Virus record (IMG/VR): IMGVR_UViG_2706794668_000013
Direction: 5' to 3' (one strand)
Origin: a virus
Taxonomy: Duplodnaviria > Heunggongvirae > Uroviricota > Caudoviricetes
DNA length: 4,483 nucleotides
Part shown: positions 1-4,483 of the stretch, in pieces
Numbering within the stretch: the first letter of the stretch is position 1
How the letters are laid out: every line of letters starts with the position of its first letter
Made by a program: the position numbers and the translations under genes
The notes under the pieces: model-generated
Told to the model about the DNA's origin: nothing
Databases searched by the model: none
What the model saw: the letters and a program-made list of their open reading frames with translations, nothing else

Positions 1-163
1 CACAACATCCGAGGACAGCATCGTCCGCCAGCCTACAGAAGTCCGGAAAGCCATGGAAGGTCGTTGGGAGGAGGTACGAATTCTATCATGCAAAAAATAC
101 GTAAAATCGATAACGCCTAGAAATCATTCAATACTCGCACTATCGAAAGTTTACCAGCCAACC

Positions 164-192
164 GCGGCACGTTCCTGCATACGACGTGCCGC
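164..192. terminator. Perfect 9-bp stem / 11-nt loop hairpin located 8 nt past the last minus-strand stop codon; candidate transcription terminator or RNA stability element
   Basis: GCGGCACGT (164-172) pairs perfectly with ACGTGCCGC (184-192), 7 of 9 pairs G:C. No U-tract follows on the minus-strand transcript; the plus strand has a T-rich run after it (193-206, AGCTTCTGTTATTC), so it could equally terminate a convergent plus-strand transcript. Confidence 0.35.
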
Positions 193-200
193 AGCTTCTG

Positions 201-764
201 TTATTCCACGATAAAATTCCTAACCGAATTCAAATCCTTCAGACTATTCAGCTCTTCCTTCAGCTCCCGCTGACGGCGATAAATCTCGTCATTGCGCTCA
301 ACCTGTGCCTGAGCCATTGCTGCCGCCAGTTCTTCCAGTTCCGGCATCGACTGTTTCACCTGCTGATTATCGGCATCACCCCACGTCATCACGTCCCGTA
401 CAATGTCGGATTTCGCAGCCATTACCACCGGATAAAGGCGGCCCAGTGAGTTGGGGCCAGCATTCCAGATACGACCGTTCCATTCAAACGTGAACGGCTT
501 CGCCTCCTGTTCTGTGCGCCATGCTTCAATTTCCTGACGTCTGGCCTCTCTGGCCGCTTCCAGCATTTCTGGTGTCACAGTGAATGGGGCTATCTCACCC
601 CATTTGCCACTTTGCAGTTCCTGCCAGATTCGCTGACCCGTCGGTGCGACATCATCAGCGGTGGCTGTGTAGGGGACTGCCTGGTCCCTGTCGTCAAAAA
701 AAACGTCACAGTCTACTGCGCCACTTTCGGTATAACGGGGATTAATGATTTTTTTAATTTCCAC
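201..764 (-). CDS. Hypothetical protein, probably the assembly chaperone for the Stf-like fibre
   Basis: ORF open from 824 to the TAA at 201-203 with protein-like composition. Preferred start is the GTG at 762-764, preceded by GAGGAA with a 6-nt spacer and lying just after the upstream TGA (775-777); the first ATG at 822-824 would overlap the upstream gene by 50 nt and has no Shine-Dalgarno. Function is inferred from position (small gene directly 3' of a fibre gene), not from recognised homology. Confidence 0.6.
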   Translation of the reverse strand: MEIKKIINPRYTESGAVDCDVFFDDRDQAVPYTATADDVAPTGQRIWQELQSGKWGEIAPFTVTPEMLEAAREARRQEIEAWRTEQEAKPFTFEWNGRIWNAGPNSLGRLYPVVMAAKSDIVRDVMTWGDADNQQVKQSMPELEELAAAMAQAQVERNDEIYRRQRELKEELNSLKDLNSVRNFIVE

Positions 765-774
765 GGTGCATTCC

Positions 775-1899
775 TCACGATGTGCGAATAAAAAGCCCGG
801 GCATTGCGCCAGAGACATGAGCATCCGGCACCCCGGACAGGGCGCTATATGACCCCGGTAATGAATGCTCTGAACATCCCGTAATGAAAAATTGTGGGGA
901 TGCTATATACGTTCCGGTGGGAGTACTGGGCACTGAAATCCCCACCGGTCCCAGTCGTGAGCCTCTGTATGACTGCCCCCTGACAAGTCTGATGACTTTA
1001 TCACCGTCAGCTTCTCCCTGGTACGCAGCAATAATCAGCCCGCCAATGTCAGGGTCTCCCCATCTGTTGCAGACAGAGCTCGCCACGATTCTGTAAATAA
1101 TATCTTCTGTGGTTATATTTATTTTCACCCAGCCAGTCAGTCTGGATATGGGCCAGTAGCAGTAGCGGGTGTGATAAATGGGGCCGTTAATGCCGTAAAA
1201 AGTAAGGGATTTGGCTCTGTACCTCGGTTCTGTTGTCTCAGGGCGTGCATCAGTCCACCGGATGCTGAGCACCCCTTCAAACCGTGTGTCGGGTATGATG
1301 ATGTCGTAGGGGCCAGCAACGGAATATTCACCTGGCAGCGCATTCCTTACCCAGGCCAGGAAATCACTCTTAGTGTCAAAACGGATAACATCTTCAGGCA
1401 GAAAAGCACACCCAAAGCCGAATGCGCCGGGTATCGCCAGACGGCCTTTTGTCCGGTCGTAAATGTCGCTCTGTGCTTCCATCGTGGCCGCACTTTTCAG
1501 CCCCAGATTATCCTGCGCCGTCTGCTGTGCGTTTCCGGCTGCGGCCCCGGCGCTCTGCTGCGCCTGCGCCACCATTTCCTCAAAGCGTTTGACGACATCC
1601 GGTTTCAGGTCGCCCTCATCAGGAGCAATCAGAAAGTCATTCAGCGTGCCGGGCTTTGAGTCGTCGTATACAGCAATGTCGCCAACACAGTACTCGTCGC
1701 GCCAGTCCCGTTTCAGATACACGCAATATTTTCCGACCTGTGCCTCAAACGAATATTCACCGTTATTTCCGGTCACTACATCAGCCCTGGTACGCATCAC
1801 CACTTCTGAGGTGTTTACACGGGATTTCAGAATAATCTGGCATCCGGACATGGGGATGCCTGCGCCATCAGTCAGCGCACCTGATATCACTACAGACAT
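775..1899 (-). CDS. stf: Second tail fibre protein: lambda Stf-like N-terminal tail-attachment domain, Ala/Gln-rich linker, unrecognised C-terminal domain
   Basis: N-terminus MSVVISGALTDGAGIPMSGCQIILKSRVNTSEVV...YDDSKPGTLNDFLIAPDEGDLKPDVVKRFEEMV aligns by eye with the lambda Stf N-terminus (MAVKISGVLKDGTGKPVQNCTIQLKARRNSTTVV...YEDSQPGTLNDFLCAMTEDDARPEVLRRLELMV), i.e. the prophage tail fibre N-terminal domain. It is followed by an Ala/Gln-rich stretch (AQAQQSAGAAAGNAQQTAQ). A weak GAGA motif lies 7 nt before the ATG, which is 21 nt downstream of the tfa stop. Confidence 0.85.
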   Translation of the reverse strand: MSVVISGALTDGAGIPMSGCQIILKSRVNTSEVVMRTRADVVTGNNGEYSFEAQVGKYCVYLKRDWRDEYCVGDIAVYDDSKPGTLNDFLIAPDEGDLKPDVVKRFEEMVAQAQQSAGAAAGNAQQTAQDNLGLKSAATMEAQSDIYDRTKGRLAIPGAFGFGCAFLPEDVIRFDTKSDFLAWVRNALPGEYSVAGPYDIIIPDTRFEGVLSIRWTDARPETTEPRYRAKSLTFYGINGPIYHTRYCYWPISRLTGWVKINITTEDIIYRIVASSVCNRWGDPDIGGLIIAAYQGEADGDKVIRLVRGQSYRGSRLGPVGISVPSTPTGTYIASPQFFITGCSEHSLPGSYSALSGVPDAHVSGAMPGLFIRTS

Positions 1900-1922: not shown

Positions 1923-2468
1923 TCAGGAAGAACCTTCCGGAGAGACGGACCATTCAATGGCGTTATATGAGGATTTATCAGTGATGGTGCTGAAATCCAT
2001 CGCCTGCAGCGATTTCGCGTAAATACGGTACGCTTTCAGTTTTTCCCGGTCTTCGTCGCTGATTAGCCCCAGCAGCAGGTCTTCTTCCCATTCCCCTGTC
2101 CGGGCACTGACCTGAGCCAGAAGGGCATCACGCTCATCTTCCGCTTTGAGTCTGTAGTCAAAGACAAATTCATCATTGCGGTAAAACCAGTAACCCGGCG
2201 CGGTAATGCGGCGGTTGGCGGTAATATCAGGAACTTCAATAACACTGGCGTTACGGGGTTCAATGCCTGTCACATCCTTACCGACCCACACCACGCGCCC
2301 GTCTCCGGTGTAAACCATTTTTATGGTGTCACTGGCAAAGTTCTTCTGTTCTTCATACCAGTTTTTGCCGTCTTCCGAAAAAAGCCAGGTGACATCATAC
2401 TGTTTTGTCAGCTGATATTATTCCGCGGTTTTCGGATTACCTGCCGTAATATTTTTTAAATGCAACAT
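1923..2468 (-). pseudogene. tfa: Tail fibre assembly protein (Tfa / Mu U-type chaperone) interrupted by a single in-frame TAA at codon 17
   Basis: ATG at 2466-2468, two nt after the fibre stop, encodes MLHLKNITAGNPKTAE then TAA (2418-2420). The same frame continues without further stops as YQLTKQYDVTWLFSEDGKNWYEEQKNF...EVPDITANRR... to the stop at 1923-1925. The intact family N-terminus, as I recall it, is MMHLKNI..NPKTKEQYQLTK, so the TAA sits where a conserved Gln (CAA) codon is expected. The longest uninterrupted ORF is 1923..2318 (131 aa, from an internal Met). Confidence 0.8.
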
Positions 2469-2470
2469 TG

Positions 2471-3511
2471 TTAAATACTCGCTACGTTATACCAGGTGCC
2501 ATTAATCAGTTTTTGCAGCGGTCGGTAATACACGCCGTTGACGTTATCCGCTGAGTTACGGCCGGTATCCGATATCGATATCCCTGACAGCCCGTGTCCC
2601 GAAGGTGAGCGAAATGTCCACGAAACGGTGTTACTGCCGGGGGGGTAATACATTTCATAACCATACCGCACATCCTGCACGCCACCATTTCGCTGCTGGT
2701 AACGGGCATCAAAGTTTCCGTAGTCTGACGGTGTTACCCGTCCTGTAACGTTTACAGCTTTATTACTCTGGATACTGCCACTCTGAAAACGCAACACATG
2801 CACGCTATTGGCATAAACATCCAGCAGGCCATCACCATTCTGTTTGAATCCGGTGTCATTATCACCAAGAACAATTGAATTCCCCCCCAGGGCGTTCTGA
2901 ACGCCGATACCCAGCGCACCATTGACCTGCGAACCACCGCCAACAGACACTTTATGCGACATGGATATTTCACCCGTCCGCAGATTAATGGTGAACGGGC
3001 GCAGGGGACCAATATCGCCATTTTCCCCCTGACCTTCACTGGTGGGAATAAGGTGCAGGCACTCTTCCGAACGACGAAAAATCAGGCCAAAAGCTTCGTT
3101 GAAAATCCTCAGCGCATTAACACCACGGATTTTCAGCTCTCCGGTCATGGTGTCGCCATCACGCTGAACGGCATTTTTTGCCTTATCCACCGTGGGTTTT
3201 AATCCGAGGTTTTCAACAGCCTCATCCCTGTCTTCCACATCCGAAAGGTTATTTTTTATCAGCAATGCCTCTTCGTTAATTGCACCGCCCACCAGCAATA
3301 ATATAGCCTTATATAGCTGGTCGTGTTCTTCTTTATTCAGTTCTATCCCGGCCTTCTCAATGACACCACAGATTTCCTCCTGAATGGCATTCCACATGGC
3401 ACTGTTCAGCCAGGTAGCAAGACGTCCTGTGCGAAGATTTCCGTCAGTAAATCCGTTCTTACCCGGACCAAACTTATCTTTTACCGCAGTCAGCGTATCA
3501 ATCCTGTGCAT
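2471..3511 (-). CDS. Tail fibre protein with a P2 gpH / Mu S-like C-terminal region
   Basis: C-terminal residues (NALGGNSIVLGDNDTGFKQNGDGLLDVYANS...RPLQKLINGTWYNVASI) closely match the conserved C-terminus of P2 H-type fibres (recalled as ...NALGGSSIVLGDNDTGFKQNGDGILDVYANS...INGTWYNVAQV). The internal motif VENLGLKPTVDKAKNAVQRDGDTMTGEL is the conserved fibre junction motif. Start chosen at the third in-frame ATG (3509-3511) because GAGG lies 6 nt upstream; the ORF is open from 3523 and ATGs at 3523 or 3517 are alternatives. The start overlaps the gp48-like gene by 14-26 nt. Confidence 0.9.
   Translation of the reverse strand: MHRIDTLTAVKDKFGPGKNGFTDGNLRTGRLATWLNSAMWNAIQEEICGVIEKAGIELNKEEHDQLYKAILLLVGGAINEEALLIKNNLSDVEDRDEAVENLGLKPTVDKAKNAVQRDGDTMTGELKIRGVNALRIFNEAFGLIFRRSEECLHLIPTSEGQGENGDIGPLRPFTINLRTGEISMSHKVSVGGGSQVNGALGIGVQNALGGNSIVLGDNDTGFKQNGDGLLDVYANSVHVLRFQSGSIQSNKAVNVTGRVTPSDYGNFDARYQQRNGGVQDVRYGYEMYYPPGSNTVSWTFRSPSGHGLSGISISDTGRNSADNVNGVYYRPLQKLINGTWYNVASI
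3194..3219. other. Sequence resembling a Gin/Hin/Cin/Pin-family invertase crossover site, embedded in the tail fibre gene
   Basis: GGGTTTTAATCC-GA-GGTTTTCAACAG. The right half matches the recalled hix half-site GGTTTTCAAGAA at 10 of 12 positions, the core is GA as in gixL, and the left half is a poor match (about 6 of 12). It encodes the conserved fibre motif VENLGLKP. Confidence 0.3.
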
Positions 3512-4088
3512 CTTCATCCTCATCTGGATAGGAAAATAAAACGACGGTGTGTGACGGACATAATTTATTAATCACGCACTCCGCAACCGTATCCCCCCAC
3601 GTCCGGATCGGTGTGTTGCAGGCGTCCGTGCATGTCTGCCACTGAGCACCGGCATCCATCGGCAACGTCACACGCCAGAAATAACGCCAGCGATCTCCCC
3701 ATTCCGGATCGGGGCTTGCATCCAAGTGCTGGAACTGTTCGATCGTTACGCCGGTATATCCCAGCGCCTCAAGCTGATCCAGGAAGAACTGCTCATTTAT
3801 GCCACCAGCCACATTGGCTTTTGCTTCAAGACGTTGCTGACGCTGGCGTAATGTCTGGGTTCCGACAGGGGAACAGGAATCAGGTAAACCATACAATTCT
3901 TCATAACGTTCAATCAGCTCTGTGGACTGACCGGGATCGATTTCAATCACCAGTTCATCAGCCCGCTGGTGAACACGCACAAGCGATGGTGCCAGACCGT
4001 CAAGTACACCGTCGGTATCTGACCATGCAGGCCCCGGCGGCATCAGTCCGTACAGCAGCTTTGTATAATCATCCTGTAACGAATCCAT
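3498..4088 (-). CDS. Phage tail protein of the Mu gp48 / DUF2313 (YmfQ-like) family
   Basis: 196-aa ORF whose N-terminus (MDSLQDDYTKLLYGLMPPGPAW...ELYGLP) fits the pattern I recall for DUF2313/gp48-like proteins. Start is coupled to the upstream stop (TAATG) and the gene sits directly upstream of a tail fibre gene. Confidence 0.85.
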   Translation of the reverse strand: MDSLQDDYTKLLYGLMPPGPAWSDTDGVLDGLAPSLVRVHQRADELVIEIDPGQSTELIERYEELYGLPDSCSPVGTQTLRQRQQRLEAKANVAGGINEQFFLDQLEALGYTGVTIEQFQHLDASPDPEWGDRWRYFWRVTLPMDAGAQWQTCTDACNTPIRTWGDTVAECVINKLCPSHTVVLFSYPDEDEDAQD

Positions 4089-4483
4089 TATTTACTCCTT
4101 GCCGGGTCATAAGCCTGCCAGGTGATCTCGCCGAGCACCGGAAGCTCGGTCTCCCCCAGGTCAATATCCGATGAAGGGACGATTAACCGGTGGGCCACTT
4201 CACCAGCAGACAAACTGATGGCCTCACTGATTCTGGACAGATACATACGCCCCTCTGGCACACCATCCCGTAACATCAGTGCATTCAGCTCTGCTTTTAT
4301 TGCAGTCCTGATCTGCGGTGTGTCTTTCGATAATGCAATCGTCATCGGGATGACTTTTTCTGTGGCACCGAATACATACAATCCGCTTCCGGCAACAGGT
4401 GCCAGAGGAAGGATGTGGTCCCTGACTGCGTTAATCACGCTTTCATCCGGGGCCGGGCGTTCCGGATCGTTTGTCGCCACCAT
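4088..4483 (-). CDS. Baseplate J-like protein (Mu gp47 / JayE-like), C-terminal part only; the 5' end lies beyond the window edge
   Basis: Minus-strand ORF open to the window edge; the ATG at 4481-4483 is probably not the true start. Its TAA stop (4088-4090) overlaps the ATG of the next gene (4086-4088) as TAATG, the usual arrangement upstream of gp48-like genes in Mu-type baseplate modules. Family assignment rests on this position plus general sequence character, not on a search. Confidence 0.7.
   Translation of the reverse strand: MVATNDPERPAPDESVINAVRDHILPLAPVAGSGLYVFGATEKVIPMTIALSKDTPQIRTAIKAELNALMLRDGVPEGRMYLSRISEAISLSAGEVAHRLIVPSSDIDLGETELPVLGEITWQAYDPARSK

Follow-up and report, generated by a model that had tools for sequence, protein, structure and literature searches.

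A crossover-site-like sequence in a phiP27-like tail-fibre gene is probably coding DNA of the hinge motif and not a working recombination switch

Results

Gene organization of the prophage tail module

The window, i.e. the whole stretch of 4,483 nucleotides that was analysed, covers the end of a prophage, and all prophage genes in this stretch are co-directional. The following genes and control features were assigned.

1..120, plus strand: 3′ end of sitD, host or island DNA (from the annotation of locus L003, 97% identical over window 1-1545)
201..824, minus strand: DUF4376 protein, tail-fibre assembly-like, the last prophage gene before sitD
775..1899, minus strand: second fibre gene with a lambda Stf-type N-terminal domain
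1492..1512, minus strand: second NLGL motif, DNLGLKS, encoded by GATAATCTGGGGCTGAAAAGT, used as internal control
1923..2468, minus strand: tail-fibre assembly gene (tfa; Caudo_TAP), co-directional with the fibre gene
2471..3523, minus strand: tail-fibre gene of the Mu S / e14 StfP type, 350 aa (phrog_6859, E = 5.7e-209)
3498..4088, minus strand: YmfQ / Mu gp48-like gene of a Mu-type baseplate module
4088..4483, minus strand: C-terminus of a baseplate J / Mu gp47-like gene of the same module

The Mu-type baseplate module (YmfQ/gp48 and J/gp47) is organized as in phiP27, e14 and SfV. Directly after the gp48/YmfQ gene follows the fibre gene with an N-terminal domain of the StfP/SfV orf21/Mu S type, whose baseplate-attachment part is 58% identical to StfP (aa 1-65). 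Homology to Mu S covers the hinge and the C-terminal receptor-binding part: Mu S aligns on either side of the hinge motif (fibre aa 83-130 with Mu 146-194) and again over the C-terminal domain (30% identity to Mu S aa 268-503, ending in INGTWYNVAS). The receptor-binding domain is followed by tfa; codon 17 of this gene is a TAA stop (window 2418-2420), where intact homologues encode Gln.

The gene order J, gp48-like, fibre, tfa, Stf-like fibre and last small ORF is the same in phiP27, and the N-terminal 130 aa of phiP27 L54 are 96.9% identical to the window fibre. Whereas phiP27 is a complete Stx2e phage, the window copy carries the tfa nonsense codon, a shortened Stf-like gene and a differing C-terminal part of the fibre. 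The fibre gene thus belongs to a defective phiP27-like prophage abutting sitD.

A crossover-site-like 26-mer in the hinge codons of the fibre gene

The first-pass annotation had placed a DNA invertase crossover-like sequence at 3194-3219, about 100 codons into the fibre gene, and this sequence was found as described. The plus strand reads GGGTTTTAATCCGAGGTTTTCAACAG, its reverse complement CTGTTGAAAACC TC GGATTAAAACCC. The 26-mer consists of the following parts.

3194..3219, minus strand: complete 26-mer, CTGTTGAAAACC-TC-GGATTAAAACCC, encoding (A)VENLGLKP; in-frame positional homologue of gixL, pixL and cixR
3208..3219, minus strand: promoter-proximal ('constant-side') half, CTGTTGAAAACC, like the real left halves of pixL (CTCTCGAAAACC) and hixL (TTCTTGAAAACC)
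3206..3207, minus strand: central dinucleotide TC, the same as in Mu gix and the EC958 Phi1/Phi4 sites
3194..3205, minus strand: distal ('variable-side') pseudo-half, GGATTAAAACCC, encoding Gly-Leu-Lys-Pro; not a half-site

The 26-mer occupies nt 305-330 of the fibre gene with the core at 317/318 and corresponds to codons 102-110 (A-VENLGLKP), or 98-106 if the Met of MHRIDT is the true start. It lies in frame within the (Q/E)(N/Y)LGL fibre motif, as do the sites of Mu, P1, e14, SKA5, SfV and ST64B; the translations are IQNLGLQE in Mu, ALENLGLGE in e14, IQYLGLRE in P1 and AVENLGLKP here. What is non-random about the sequence is its position and frame, since gixL, pixL and cixR are embedded in these very codons of the motif. 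The proposed coincidence with the conserved fibre motif that carries gix, cix or pix was thereby borne out, with Mu S aligning on both sides of the motif. An identical 26-mer is present in phiP27 (L004, 38928-38953) and in about 50 related loci.

At the DNA level, the constant-side half is one to two changes away from the natural left halves of pixL and hixL, with 10 of 12 bases matching pixL. The central 10-mer AAAACCTCGG, TC core included, is identical to Mu gix; the whole 26-mer showed 16/26 identity to gix, and its TC core is also that of EC958 Phi1/Phi4. In real sites the distal half is GGTTTnnnAGAA (Gly-Leu-x-Glu), whereas the 26-mer has Lys-Pro codons at this place.

Scoring against real crossover sites

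For scoring, a matrix was built from the 20 unique half-sites of 14 real sites. The two halves of the 26-mer reached 9.3 (promoter-proximal) and -0.7 bits (distal), in total 8.6 bits, compared with totals of 10.5-32.4 bits for the 14 real sites. With this matrix, 18% of the dinucleotide shuffles of the window reached 8.6 bits, and with two other matrices the observed score was reached by 44% and 78% of the shuffles. A half-site equal to or better than the 9.3-bit half is expected about 1.6 times per shuffled window. The best identity of the 26-mer to any real site was 17/26, which is expected about 1.5 times per shuffled window, and in the phiP27 genome the 26-mer ranks only sixth by matrix score.

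Both halves score at least 11 bits in ten of the 14 real sites, and in the other four (hixR, SKA5_R, EC958 Phi2_5′ and Phi2_3′) the stronger half reaches at least 12 bits. Working sites with one poor half thus exist (hixR, 16.0/1.6 bits; SKA5_R, 15.0/3.4 bits; EC958 Phi2_3′, -1.7/12.2 bits), so that the total of the 26-mer is only about 2 bits below that of the weakest working site. The 26-mer does not show the structure of a true site, in which two inverted half-sites of 12 bp (about TTMTCNNAAACC) flank a 2-bp core. Of the first-pass description of a near-consensus half-site and core next to a degenerate half, the resemblance of one half and the core to real sites and the degeneracy of the other half stood. 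The match as a whole is no better than background against an invertase-site matrix, the outcome that had been named beforehand as refuting a crossover site.

Search for a partner site, an invertase and inverted cassettes

Neither an inverted-repeat search nor the matrix scan yielded a convincing partner site in the window, and no inverted repeat includes the 26-mer. The runner-up of the matrix scan, the 26-mer at 2413-2438, was rejected as a partner (6.7 bits, GC core, overlap with the start of tfa). In the complete phiP27 genome, the best partner candidate reached only 9.5 bits. Using PinE as query, tblastn gave no match in the window even at E <= 10, and its best match in the phiP27 genome had E = 4.1. 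The first-pass statement that the window holds neither an invertase gene nor a convincing partner site is confirmed.

The prophage end and the related loci gave the same picture. With sitD at positions 1..120, the tail module is covered up to the end of the prophage, and there is no invertase gene beyond the fibre genes. None of the 65 loci carrying an ENLGLK(P/T) 26-mer, 24 of which have a downstream flank of at least 5 kb, contains a Pin-like match at E <= 1e-3. Likewise, no invertase was found in the closest E. coli relative (L001), in 74 IMG/VR relatives or in seven E. coli loci (L163-L167, L177, L178). The suggested check of the flanks for a serine invertase and a second site thus ended negatively up to sitD and in phiP27, and for the invertase also in the 65 related loci; this absence was the second outcome named beforehand as refuting a crossover site. 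In e14-type loci, for contrast, the distance from pixL to the downstream pin gene is about 1.9 kb, and pixR precedes pin by about 80 bp. In the known systems, the Fis-bound enhancer lies inside the invertase gene; no cis enhancer is expected here because the element has no invertase gene.

Cassettes of fibre C-terminus and tfa in opposite orientation are absent from the window, all four genes concerned (fibre, tfa, Stf-like and DUF4376) being encoded by the minus strand. The second fibre gene, being on the same strand, is therefore not an inverted alternative cassette.

Codon usage, conservation and homology breakpoints

With the codon usage of the window, approximately 24% of ENLG stretches would read GAAAACCTNGG, and the core likeness is largely explained by coding. 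The DNA of the second NLGL motif, DNLGLKS, uses other codons for the same peptide motif and is not site-like (half scores of -7.6 and -7.8 bits). Among 33 unique homologues, six of nine third-codon positions vary in the site compared with 29 of 59 in the flanks, and variants such as AAC to AAT break the AAACC core. Selection on the 26-mer at the DNA level was rejected as there is no excess of synonymous conservation in this set of closely related homologues, which has limited power.

Homology boundaries were mapped in a spread sample of 60 of the 201 E. coli matches. The 5′ boundaries are located at nt 267, 277, 308, 323, 335, 367 and 376 of the fibre gene, a scatter of about 110 bp; only one of the 60 lies inside the 26-mer (nt 308), and about 40 are at 267, 277 or 376. 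Matches that contain the N-terminal domain extend past the 26-mer to nt 391, 552 or beyond 638. A focus of breakpoints at the core is ruled out by this spread over nt 267-376 and beyond, and the 26-mer is not the junction of constant and variable parts that it had been taken for. The 26-mer travels inside a module: P2-type tail-collar fibres (L167) share the identical 26-mer together with about 40 nt upstream.

Discussion

Comparison with known inversion systems

One of the closest known counterparts is gixL of Mu, the Gin site within gene S, which has the same frame, motif, central 10 bp and TC core as the 26-mer. Mu, however, possesses both gix halves (16.8/11.7 bits), an identical inverted gixR, inverted S′/U′ cassettes and gin immediately downstream. 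The window, by contrast, offers a single weak half and co-directional genes and lacks both partner and invertase. The pixL/pixR systems of e14 (PinE) and the e14-like phages SKA5 and vB_EcoM-689R6 have the Mu-type baseplate module (YmfQ, gp47-like) in common with the window, and the site in the ENLGL motif falls at codon ~95 of the e14 gene and codon ~104 of the window fibre gene. The e14-type loci carry CTCTCGAAAACC-TT-GGTTTGGGAGAA and an inverted partner about 1.8 kb away, whereas the window has a TC core, the distal half GGATTAAAACCC and a prophage end at sitD without pin.

Sites in phages without an active invertase are known at the same place. SfV and ST64B have the same baseplate and fibre architecture as the window and a site at the homologous codons. 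In SfV, which lacks an invertase, orf21 contains a perfect orphan pixL (14.3/15.1 bits). The site in sb24 of ST64B is also good (10.6/16.9 bits) and is followed downstream by sb27, a 73-aa pin remnant. Both have kept two good halves, whereas the distal half in the window is unrecognisable. The 26-mer is either further decayed than these sites or never was a site.

The 26-mer as a probable look-alike

Very probably, the 26-mer is the coding DNA of the hinge motif, a look-alike of a crossover site and not a working recombination switch. The homology of both flanks and the identical frame and position argue that the resemblance was inherited and did not arise independently. At the same time, as only one half is site-like and both partner and invertase are absent, the 26-mer is best regarded as an ordinary look-alike.

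We suggest that, in this fibre of the Mu S / e14 StfP type, the hinge motif (NLSDVEDRDEAVENLGLKP) connects the shaft with the N-terminal domain for baseplate attachment, and that the likeness to a crossover site stems from shared ancestry with fibre genes that embed gix, pix or cix in exactly these codons. In the lineage of the window, only the promoter-proximal half and the TC core are site-like. The distal half, encoding Lys-Pro and not x-Glu, has no recognisable recombinase-binding sequence, and the 26-mer is predicted not to be bound by a recombinase. With no partner, no inverted Sv/U cassettes and no invertase, inversion would not occur and the 26-mer would be without function as DNA. As the scatter of homology boundaries suggests, the receptor-binding modules of this family may rather be swapped at several conserved stretches, and not at the 26-mer, through homologous or relaxed homologous recombination.

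Such look-alikes are already known. Sandmeier, Iida and Arber in 1992, and Sandmeier in 1994, reportedly described a conserved tail-fibre motif with cix-like sequences, and Iida and Hiestand-Nauer are said to have described quasi-sites of Cin (secondary crossover sites) in 1987. Compared with the Sandmeier motif as it is cited, the 26-mer in the phiP27-type fibre family is not the preferred module boundary and gives no evidence of use. PMC4134206 and PMC3945230 cite the idea of crossover-site-like sequences at fibre module boundaries in phages that lack an invertase.

Alternative explanations

A plausible, if doubtful, history is that of a decayed relic: an ancestor would have possessed a working gix/pix-type site, an invertible Sv/U segment and an invertase, and the segment, the invertase and the distal half would later have been lost or replaced. 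This concerns the past of the sequence and is compatible with its present lack of function. A graded series points to such decay, from the active pairs with pin in e14 and SKA5 to the orphan pixL of SfV and the site with a pin remnant in ST64B. Moreover, the residues just after the 26-mer show homology with the first residues of Mu Sv (TVNRARNAVQKNGDT compared with TVDKAKNAVQRDGDT). A scan of genome contigs for the hinge/shaft module returned only three loci. Two of these, from S. flexneri SFBU1023 and E. coli ECMA0423, carry a pin gene 95% identical to pinE that is located about 4.4 kb beyond a homologous fibre/tfa/Stf/DUF4376 cluster and is without a pixR. In these two strains, ipaH lies between pin and the cluster and the fibres have no ENLGL motif, so that this pin is a weak hint of a relic and not a link. 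Against decay, a pattern search of IMG/VR with GTTGAAAACCTNGGTTTNNNNGAA, which combines the window-type left half with a canonical right half, revealed no intermediate; the four matches are all in unrelated low-GC contigs and not in fibre genes. The Lys-Pro variant was linked to an invertase in none of the 65 loci. Furthermore, the NLSD...NLGL peptide motif is widespread in fibres never known to invert, and sites may have arisen within the motif, which would reverse the order of events. Where the first-pass annotation offered the sequence as a relic of, or a substrate for, module exchange, the relic has precedents in SfV orf21 and ST64B, but the substrate fails on the background-level score and the lack of invertase and partner.

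We consider it improbable that the resemblance is a pure coincidence of coding without historical or functional information, any gene encoding ENLGL often reading GAAAACCTNGG. The codon-usage expectation for ENLG agrees with such a coincidence, neither the matrix score nor the 17/26 identity exceeds the shuffle expectation, and the second NLGL motif indicates that the peptide needs no site-like DNA. It does not, however, account for the homology that the fibre protein shares with Mu S and e14 StfP before and after the motif, or for the identical frame and position of the 26-mer.

It is very unlikely that the 26-mer acts as a live quasi-site, at which a Pin/Gin-family invertase from elsewhere in the genome would occasionally recombine it with a true TC-core site and thereby fuse heterologous fibre modules. 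Sandmeier reportedly proposed that host-range determinants are exchanged horizontally through fusions of this kind. Invertases can work in trans, on prophages other than their own: the e14 P segment is inverted by PinQ of Qin (PMC12529663), and inversion persists in EC958 Phi4 although its invertase is truncated (PMC4134206). Additionally, Cin uses secondary crossover sites at low frequency (PMC4270481; Iida and Hiestand-Nauer 1987, cited in PMC4134206). Locus L163 contains a hybrid 26-mer, TTATTGAAAACG-TC-GGACTGAAACCC, in which a Mu-type left half meets a window-type right half, with a left flank of the Mu/P1 type (SDIPNKPLFI) and a right flank of the window type (KPTVDKA). If the half-site and TC core were usable by Pin/Gin invertases of other prophages, this hybrid might be the footprint of a module swap, which we regard as hardly credible. 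With only about 85-90% identity of its flanks to the window, the junction is old, and microhomology or ordinary divergence fits equally well; a pattern search of IMG/VR found no hybrid joints. The background-level score, the non-cognate distal half, the lack of a cis partner, the enhancer not to be expected in cis and the single boundary inside the 26-mer also speak against use. Were the quasi-site real, Sandmeier's invertase-driven fibre mosaicism would have its first genomic evidence from a phage without an invertase, and the case would bear on how host-range modules move between unrelated phages; nothing that we found supports it.

Implications

Seen as an inherited look-alike in coding DNA, the 26-mer is of small importance and adds at most one clear example to a known picture. 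For annotation, a gix- or cix-like half-site in the ENLGL codons of a fibre gene should be called an invertase site only where a partner site, inverted cassettes and an invertase occur with it. The fibre genes of prophages with a Mu-type baseplate form a series within the one NLGL hinge motif, which leads from active invertible switches to orphan full sites and on to half-site vestiges.

Results

The 26-mer at 3194–3219 (minus strand, core at 3206–3207) is coding DNA for a conserved hinge motif of the tail fibre. The genes of the window are the following.

Features of the window (coordinates, strand, description)
4088–4483, minus, baseplate J / Mu gp47-like protein, C-terminus
3498–4088, minus, YmfQ / Mu gp48-like protein
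2471–3523, minus, tail fibre, 350 aa
1923–2468, minus, tail-fibre assembly gene (tfa), Caudo_TAP
775–1899, minus, second fibre, lambda-Stf-type N-terminal domain
201–824, minus, DUF4376 protein
1–120, plus, sitD 3′ end (iron/manganese transporter), as annotated in an E. coli locus of 97% identity (L003)

The sitD 3′ end and the stop codon of the final prophage gene are 80 nt apart, and the window therefore includes the terminus of a prophage tail module. Its baseplate and fibre architecture is of the type seen in Mu, e14, SfV and ST64B. The nearest phage is the Stx2e phage phiP27, with identical gene order and a fibre N-terminus 96.9% identical, and the nearest E. coli locus (L001) is 97% identical to the window. 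In other strains the tail module adjoins ipaH (L001, L176), yodB (L177) or ssrA (L178), so several chromosomal sites are used by this prophage family.

The window is mosaic: positions 1–2887 match prophages of the RMDEC364 type, whose baseplate is different (DUF2612) and which adjoin sitD, while 2778–4483 match the phiP27/FDAARGOS_944 type (98%). The junction (2758–2887) falls within the C-terminal region of the fibre, approximately 320 nt downstream of the 26-mer. The tfa gene has a TAA stop at codon 17 (2418–2420, minus strand) where the intact homologues in L001 and L176 have Gln (CAA), and the longest ORF left restarts at Met51 (1923–2318); the prophage is probably defective. At about 1510–1545 the Stf-like fibre is without a 47-aa Ala/Gln-rich coiled-coil segment found in L001 and L003, of which phiP27 and two E. 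coli loci (L166, L178) have longer versions. The BLAST pieces share a 36-nt overlap at this junction, suggesting that the segment was deleted between two imperfect direct repeats (AQQTAQD / AQQKSRD) that lie a short way upstream of the second NLGL motif. The Stf-like and DUF4376 ORFs overlap by 50 nt (775–824), as likewise annotated in L001 and L003.

Read from 3219 to 3194, the minus strand is CTGTTGAAAACC-TC-GGATTAAAACCC and encodes (A)VENLGLKP, codons 102–110 of the fibre. Reference sites were checked directly in the genome records of Mu, P1 and e14.

Reference crossover sites (left half, core, right half)
Mu gix: TTATCCAAAACC-TC-GGTTTACAGGAA
P1 cixL: CAATCCTAAACC-TT-GGTTTAAGAGAA
P1 cixR: TTCTCTTAAACC-AA-GGTATTGGATAA
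e14 pixL: CTCTCGAAAACC-TT-GGTTTGGGAGAA
e14 pixR: TTCTCCCAAACC-AA-CGTTTATGAAAA

The promoter-proximal half of the 26-mer matches the left half of pixL at 10 of 12 bases and the left half of hixL equally well (10/12). The central 10-mer AAAACCTCGG with its TC core is the same as in gix; the distal half has no site-like character. The first-pass annotation, which described a site-like half and core beside a degenerate half, about 100 codons into the fibre gene, was thus accurate. It also rightly placed the sequence on the conserved fibre motif, which carries gix in Mu, cix in P1 and pix in e14. The crossover sites of Mu S, P1 S, e14 StfP, SKA5, SfV orf21 and ST64B sb24 all fall on the same codons of one motif, x-(Q/E)-(N/Y)-(L/V)-G-L-x-x, and Mu S can be aligned with the window fibre to either side of this motif as well as over the C-terminal receptor-binding domain. 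This makes the 26-mer a true positional homologue of gixL and pixL; position and reading frame are the part of the likeness not due to chance.

Much of the likeness at the DNA level is explained by coding alone. Given the codon usage of the window itself, GAAAACCTNGG is predicted for about 24% of ENLG stretches. In the second fibre gene, DNLGLKS is encoded by GATAATCTGGGGCTGAAAAGT, without site character (−7.6 and −7.8 bits). No selection on the 26-mer as DNA was detected among 33 unique homologues, third-codon positions varying at 6/9 in the site versus 29/59 in the flanks, and some variants (AAC to AAT, GGA to GGG) depart from the consensus.

For scoring, 14 real sites supplied 20 unique half-sites for a matrix; six of the sites come from EC958, where PacBio data showed inversion at them (PMC4134206). 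The halves of the 26-mer score 9.3 and −0.7 bits (total 8.6), compared with 10.5–32.4 for real sites (median near 28). When the window is shuffled with dinucleotides preserved, 18% of the shuffles have an equal or better 26-mer, and 44% and 78% do so with two alternative matrices, which puts the sequence at background. Approximately 1.6 half-sites of at least 9.3 bits are expected per shuffled window, as are about 1.5 26-mers that equal the highest identity with a real site (17/26). In phiP27 (42.6 kb) the same 26-mer comes no higher than sixth by score. By matrix, the likeness to crossover sites is no more than chance.

Inverted-repeat search and matrix scan found no partner site in the window and no inverted repeat taking in the 26-mer; the second-ranked 26-mer (2413–2438) has a GC core. 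The window has no inverted cassettes, the fibre and tfa genes being all co-directional, and no invertase gene was found in it, which bears out the first-pass statement that gene and convincing partner are both missing. Among relatives, no invertase was found anywhere in the complete genome of phiP27 (lowest tblastn E = 4.1), nor in any of 65 related loci with an ENLGLK(P/T) 26-mer; in 24 of these loci the downstream flank is 5 kb or longer. In contrast, of 80 e14-type loci retrieved with PinE, nearly every one that extends upstream has a pixR-type site some 80 bp ahead of pin, and most have in addition a pixL-type site 1.8–2 kb off in inverted orientation.

The 26-mer corresponds to nt 305–330 of the fibre gene (core 317/318). 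A spread sample of 60 was drawn from the 201 E. coli matches to nt 1–644 of the gene. Their 5′ homology boundaries fell at nt 267 or 277 (about 26 matches), 308 (one), 323 (two), 335 (three), 367 (one) and 376 (about 12), and in matches with a phiP27-type N-terminus homology runs beyond the 26-mer to nt 391, 552 or >638. The proposal that the 26-mer marks the constant/variable junction therefore did not hold. Base-level alignment showed that P2-type tail-collar fibres (L167) share the identical 26-mer and about 40 nt upstream, so that it moves inside a shared module; other fibre classes join after it, at VDKAK or GDTMTGEL motifs. Only one sampled case has a module boundary inside the site: at fibre codon ~352 of E. 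coli ETEC6333 (L163), the hybrid TTATTGAAAACG-TC-GGACTGAAACCC joins a Mu/P1-type left flank (SDIPNKPLFI) to a window-type KPTVDKA module. Breakpoints thus fall at several conserved peptide motifs, a pattern that would be expected of homologous or relaxed homologous recombination, unlike site-specific crossover (compare PMC3945230).

Discussion

Judged from sequence comparison, the 26-mer is very probably a half-site look-alike, passed down as part of the fibre gene, and not a working crossover site. The first-pass annotation had suggested a relic or a substrate of exchange. The substrate was not borne out, given the background score and the lack of invertase and partner, while a relic is plausible, if on balance rather unlikely. 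An ancestral fibre gene would once have carried a working site, a matter of history compatible with present non-function. Relatives form a graded series: the active switches of e14, SKA5, Mu and P1; a perfect orphan pixL-type 26-mer at codon 95 of SfV (L168) orf21, CTCTCGAAAACCTTGGTTTGGGAGAA, without invertase or inverted cassettes; a good site at codon 99 of ST64B (L169) sb24, TTCTCCAGAACGTCGGTTTAGGAGAA, with a 73-aa pin/gin remnant (sb27) about 2 kb downstream; and the phiP27/window type with the constant-side half only. Moreover, E. coli ECMA0423 and S. flexneri SFBU1023 (L175/L176, 17209–17751) have a pin gene 95% identical to pinE. It follows ipaH, some 4.4 kb past a homologous tfa/Stf/DUF4376 cluster in which IS elements interrupt the fibre gene. 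The series and this pin make a relic origin plausible. The longest ORF of this pin is only 146 aa, so the gene is probably truncated; pixR is absent 80 bp upstream, with only a half-site, TTCTCCCAA, about 600 bp upstream. Against a relic, an IMG/VR pattern search found no intermediate between the window type and a full site, the Lys-Pro variant was never linked to an invertase (0/65 loci), and the NLSD...NLGL peptide motif is widespread in fibres without known inversion.

That a trans-acting invertase uses the 26-mer as a live quasi-site is scarcely credible. The invertase gene, within which the Fis enhancer of the Gin, Hin and Cin systems is located, is absent in the window. Invertase action across prophages does occur: PinQ acts on e14 (PMC12529663), and EC958 Phi4 inverts though its invertase is truncated (PMC4134206). 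Cin rarely uses secondary sites (PMC4270481), and hixR, SKA5_R and EC958 Phi2_3′ function with one poor half; however, in each of these three the strong half reaches 12 bits or more and there is a partner in cis, whereas the better half here reaches 9.3 bits and has no partner. Either the perfect SfV 26-mer or the ST64B site could serve as substrate for a Pin acting in trans.

PMC4134206 and PMC3945230 cite papers of 1992 and 1994 by Sandmeier and colleagues. Those earlier papers reportedly described that this fibre motif resembles cix-type sites in invertase-less phages.
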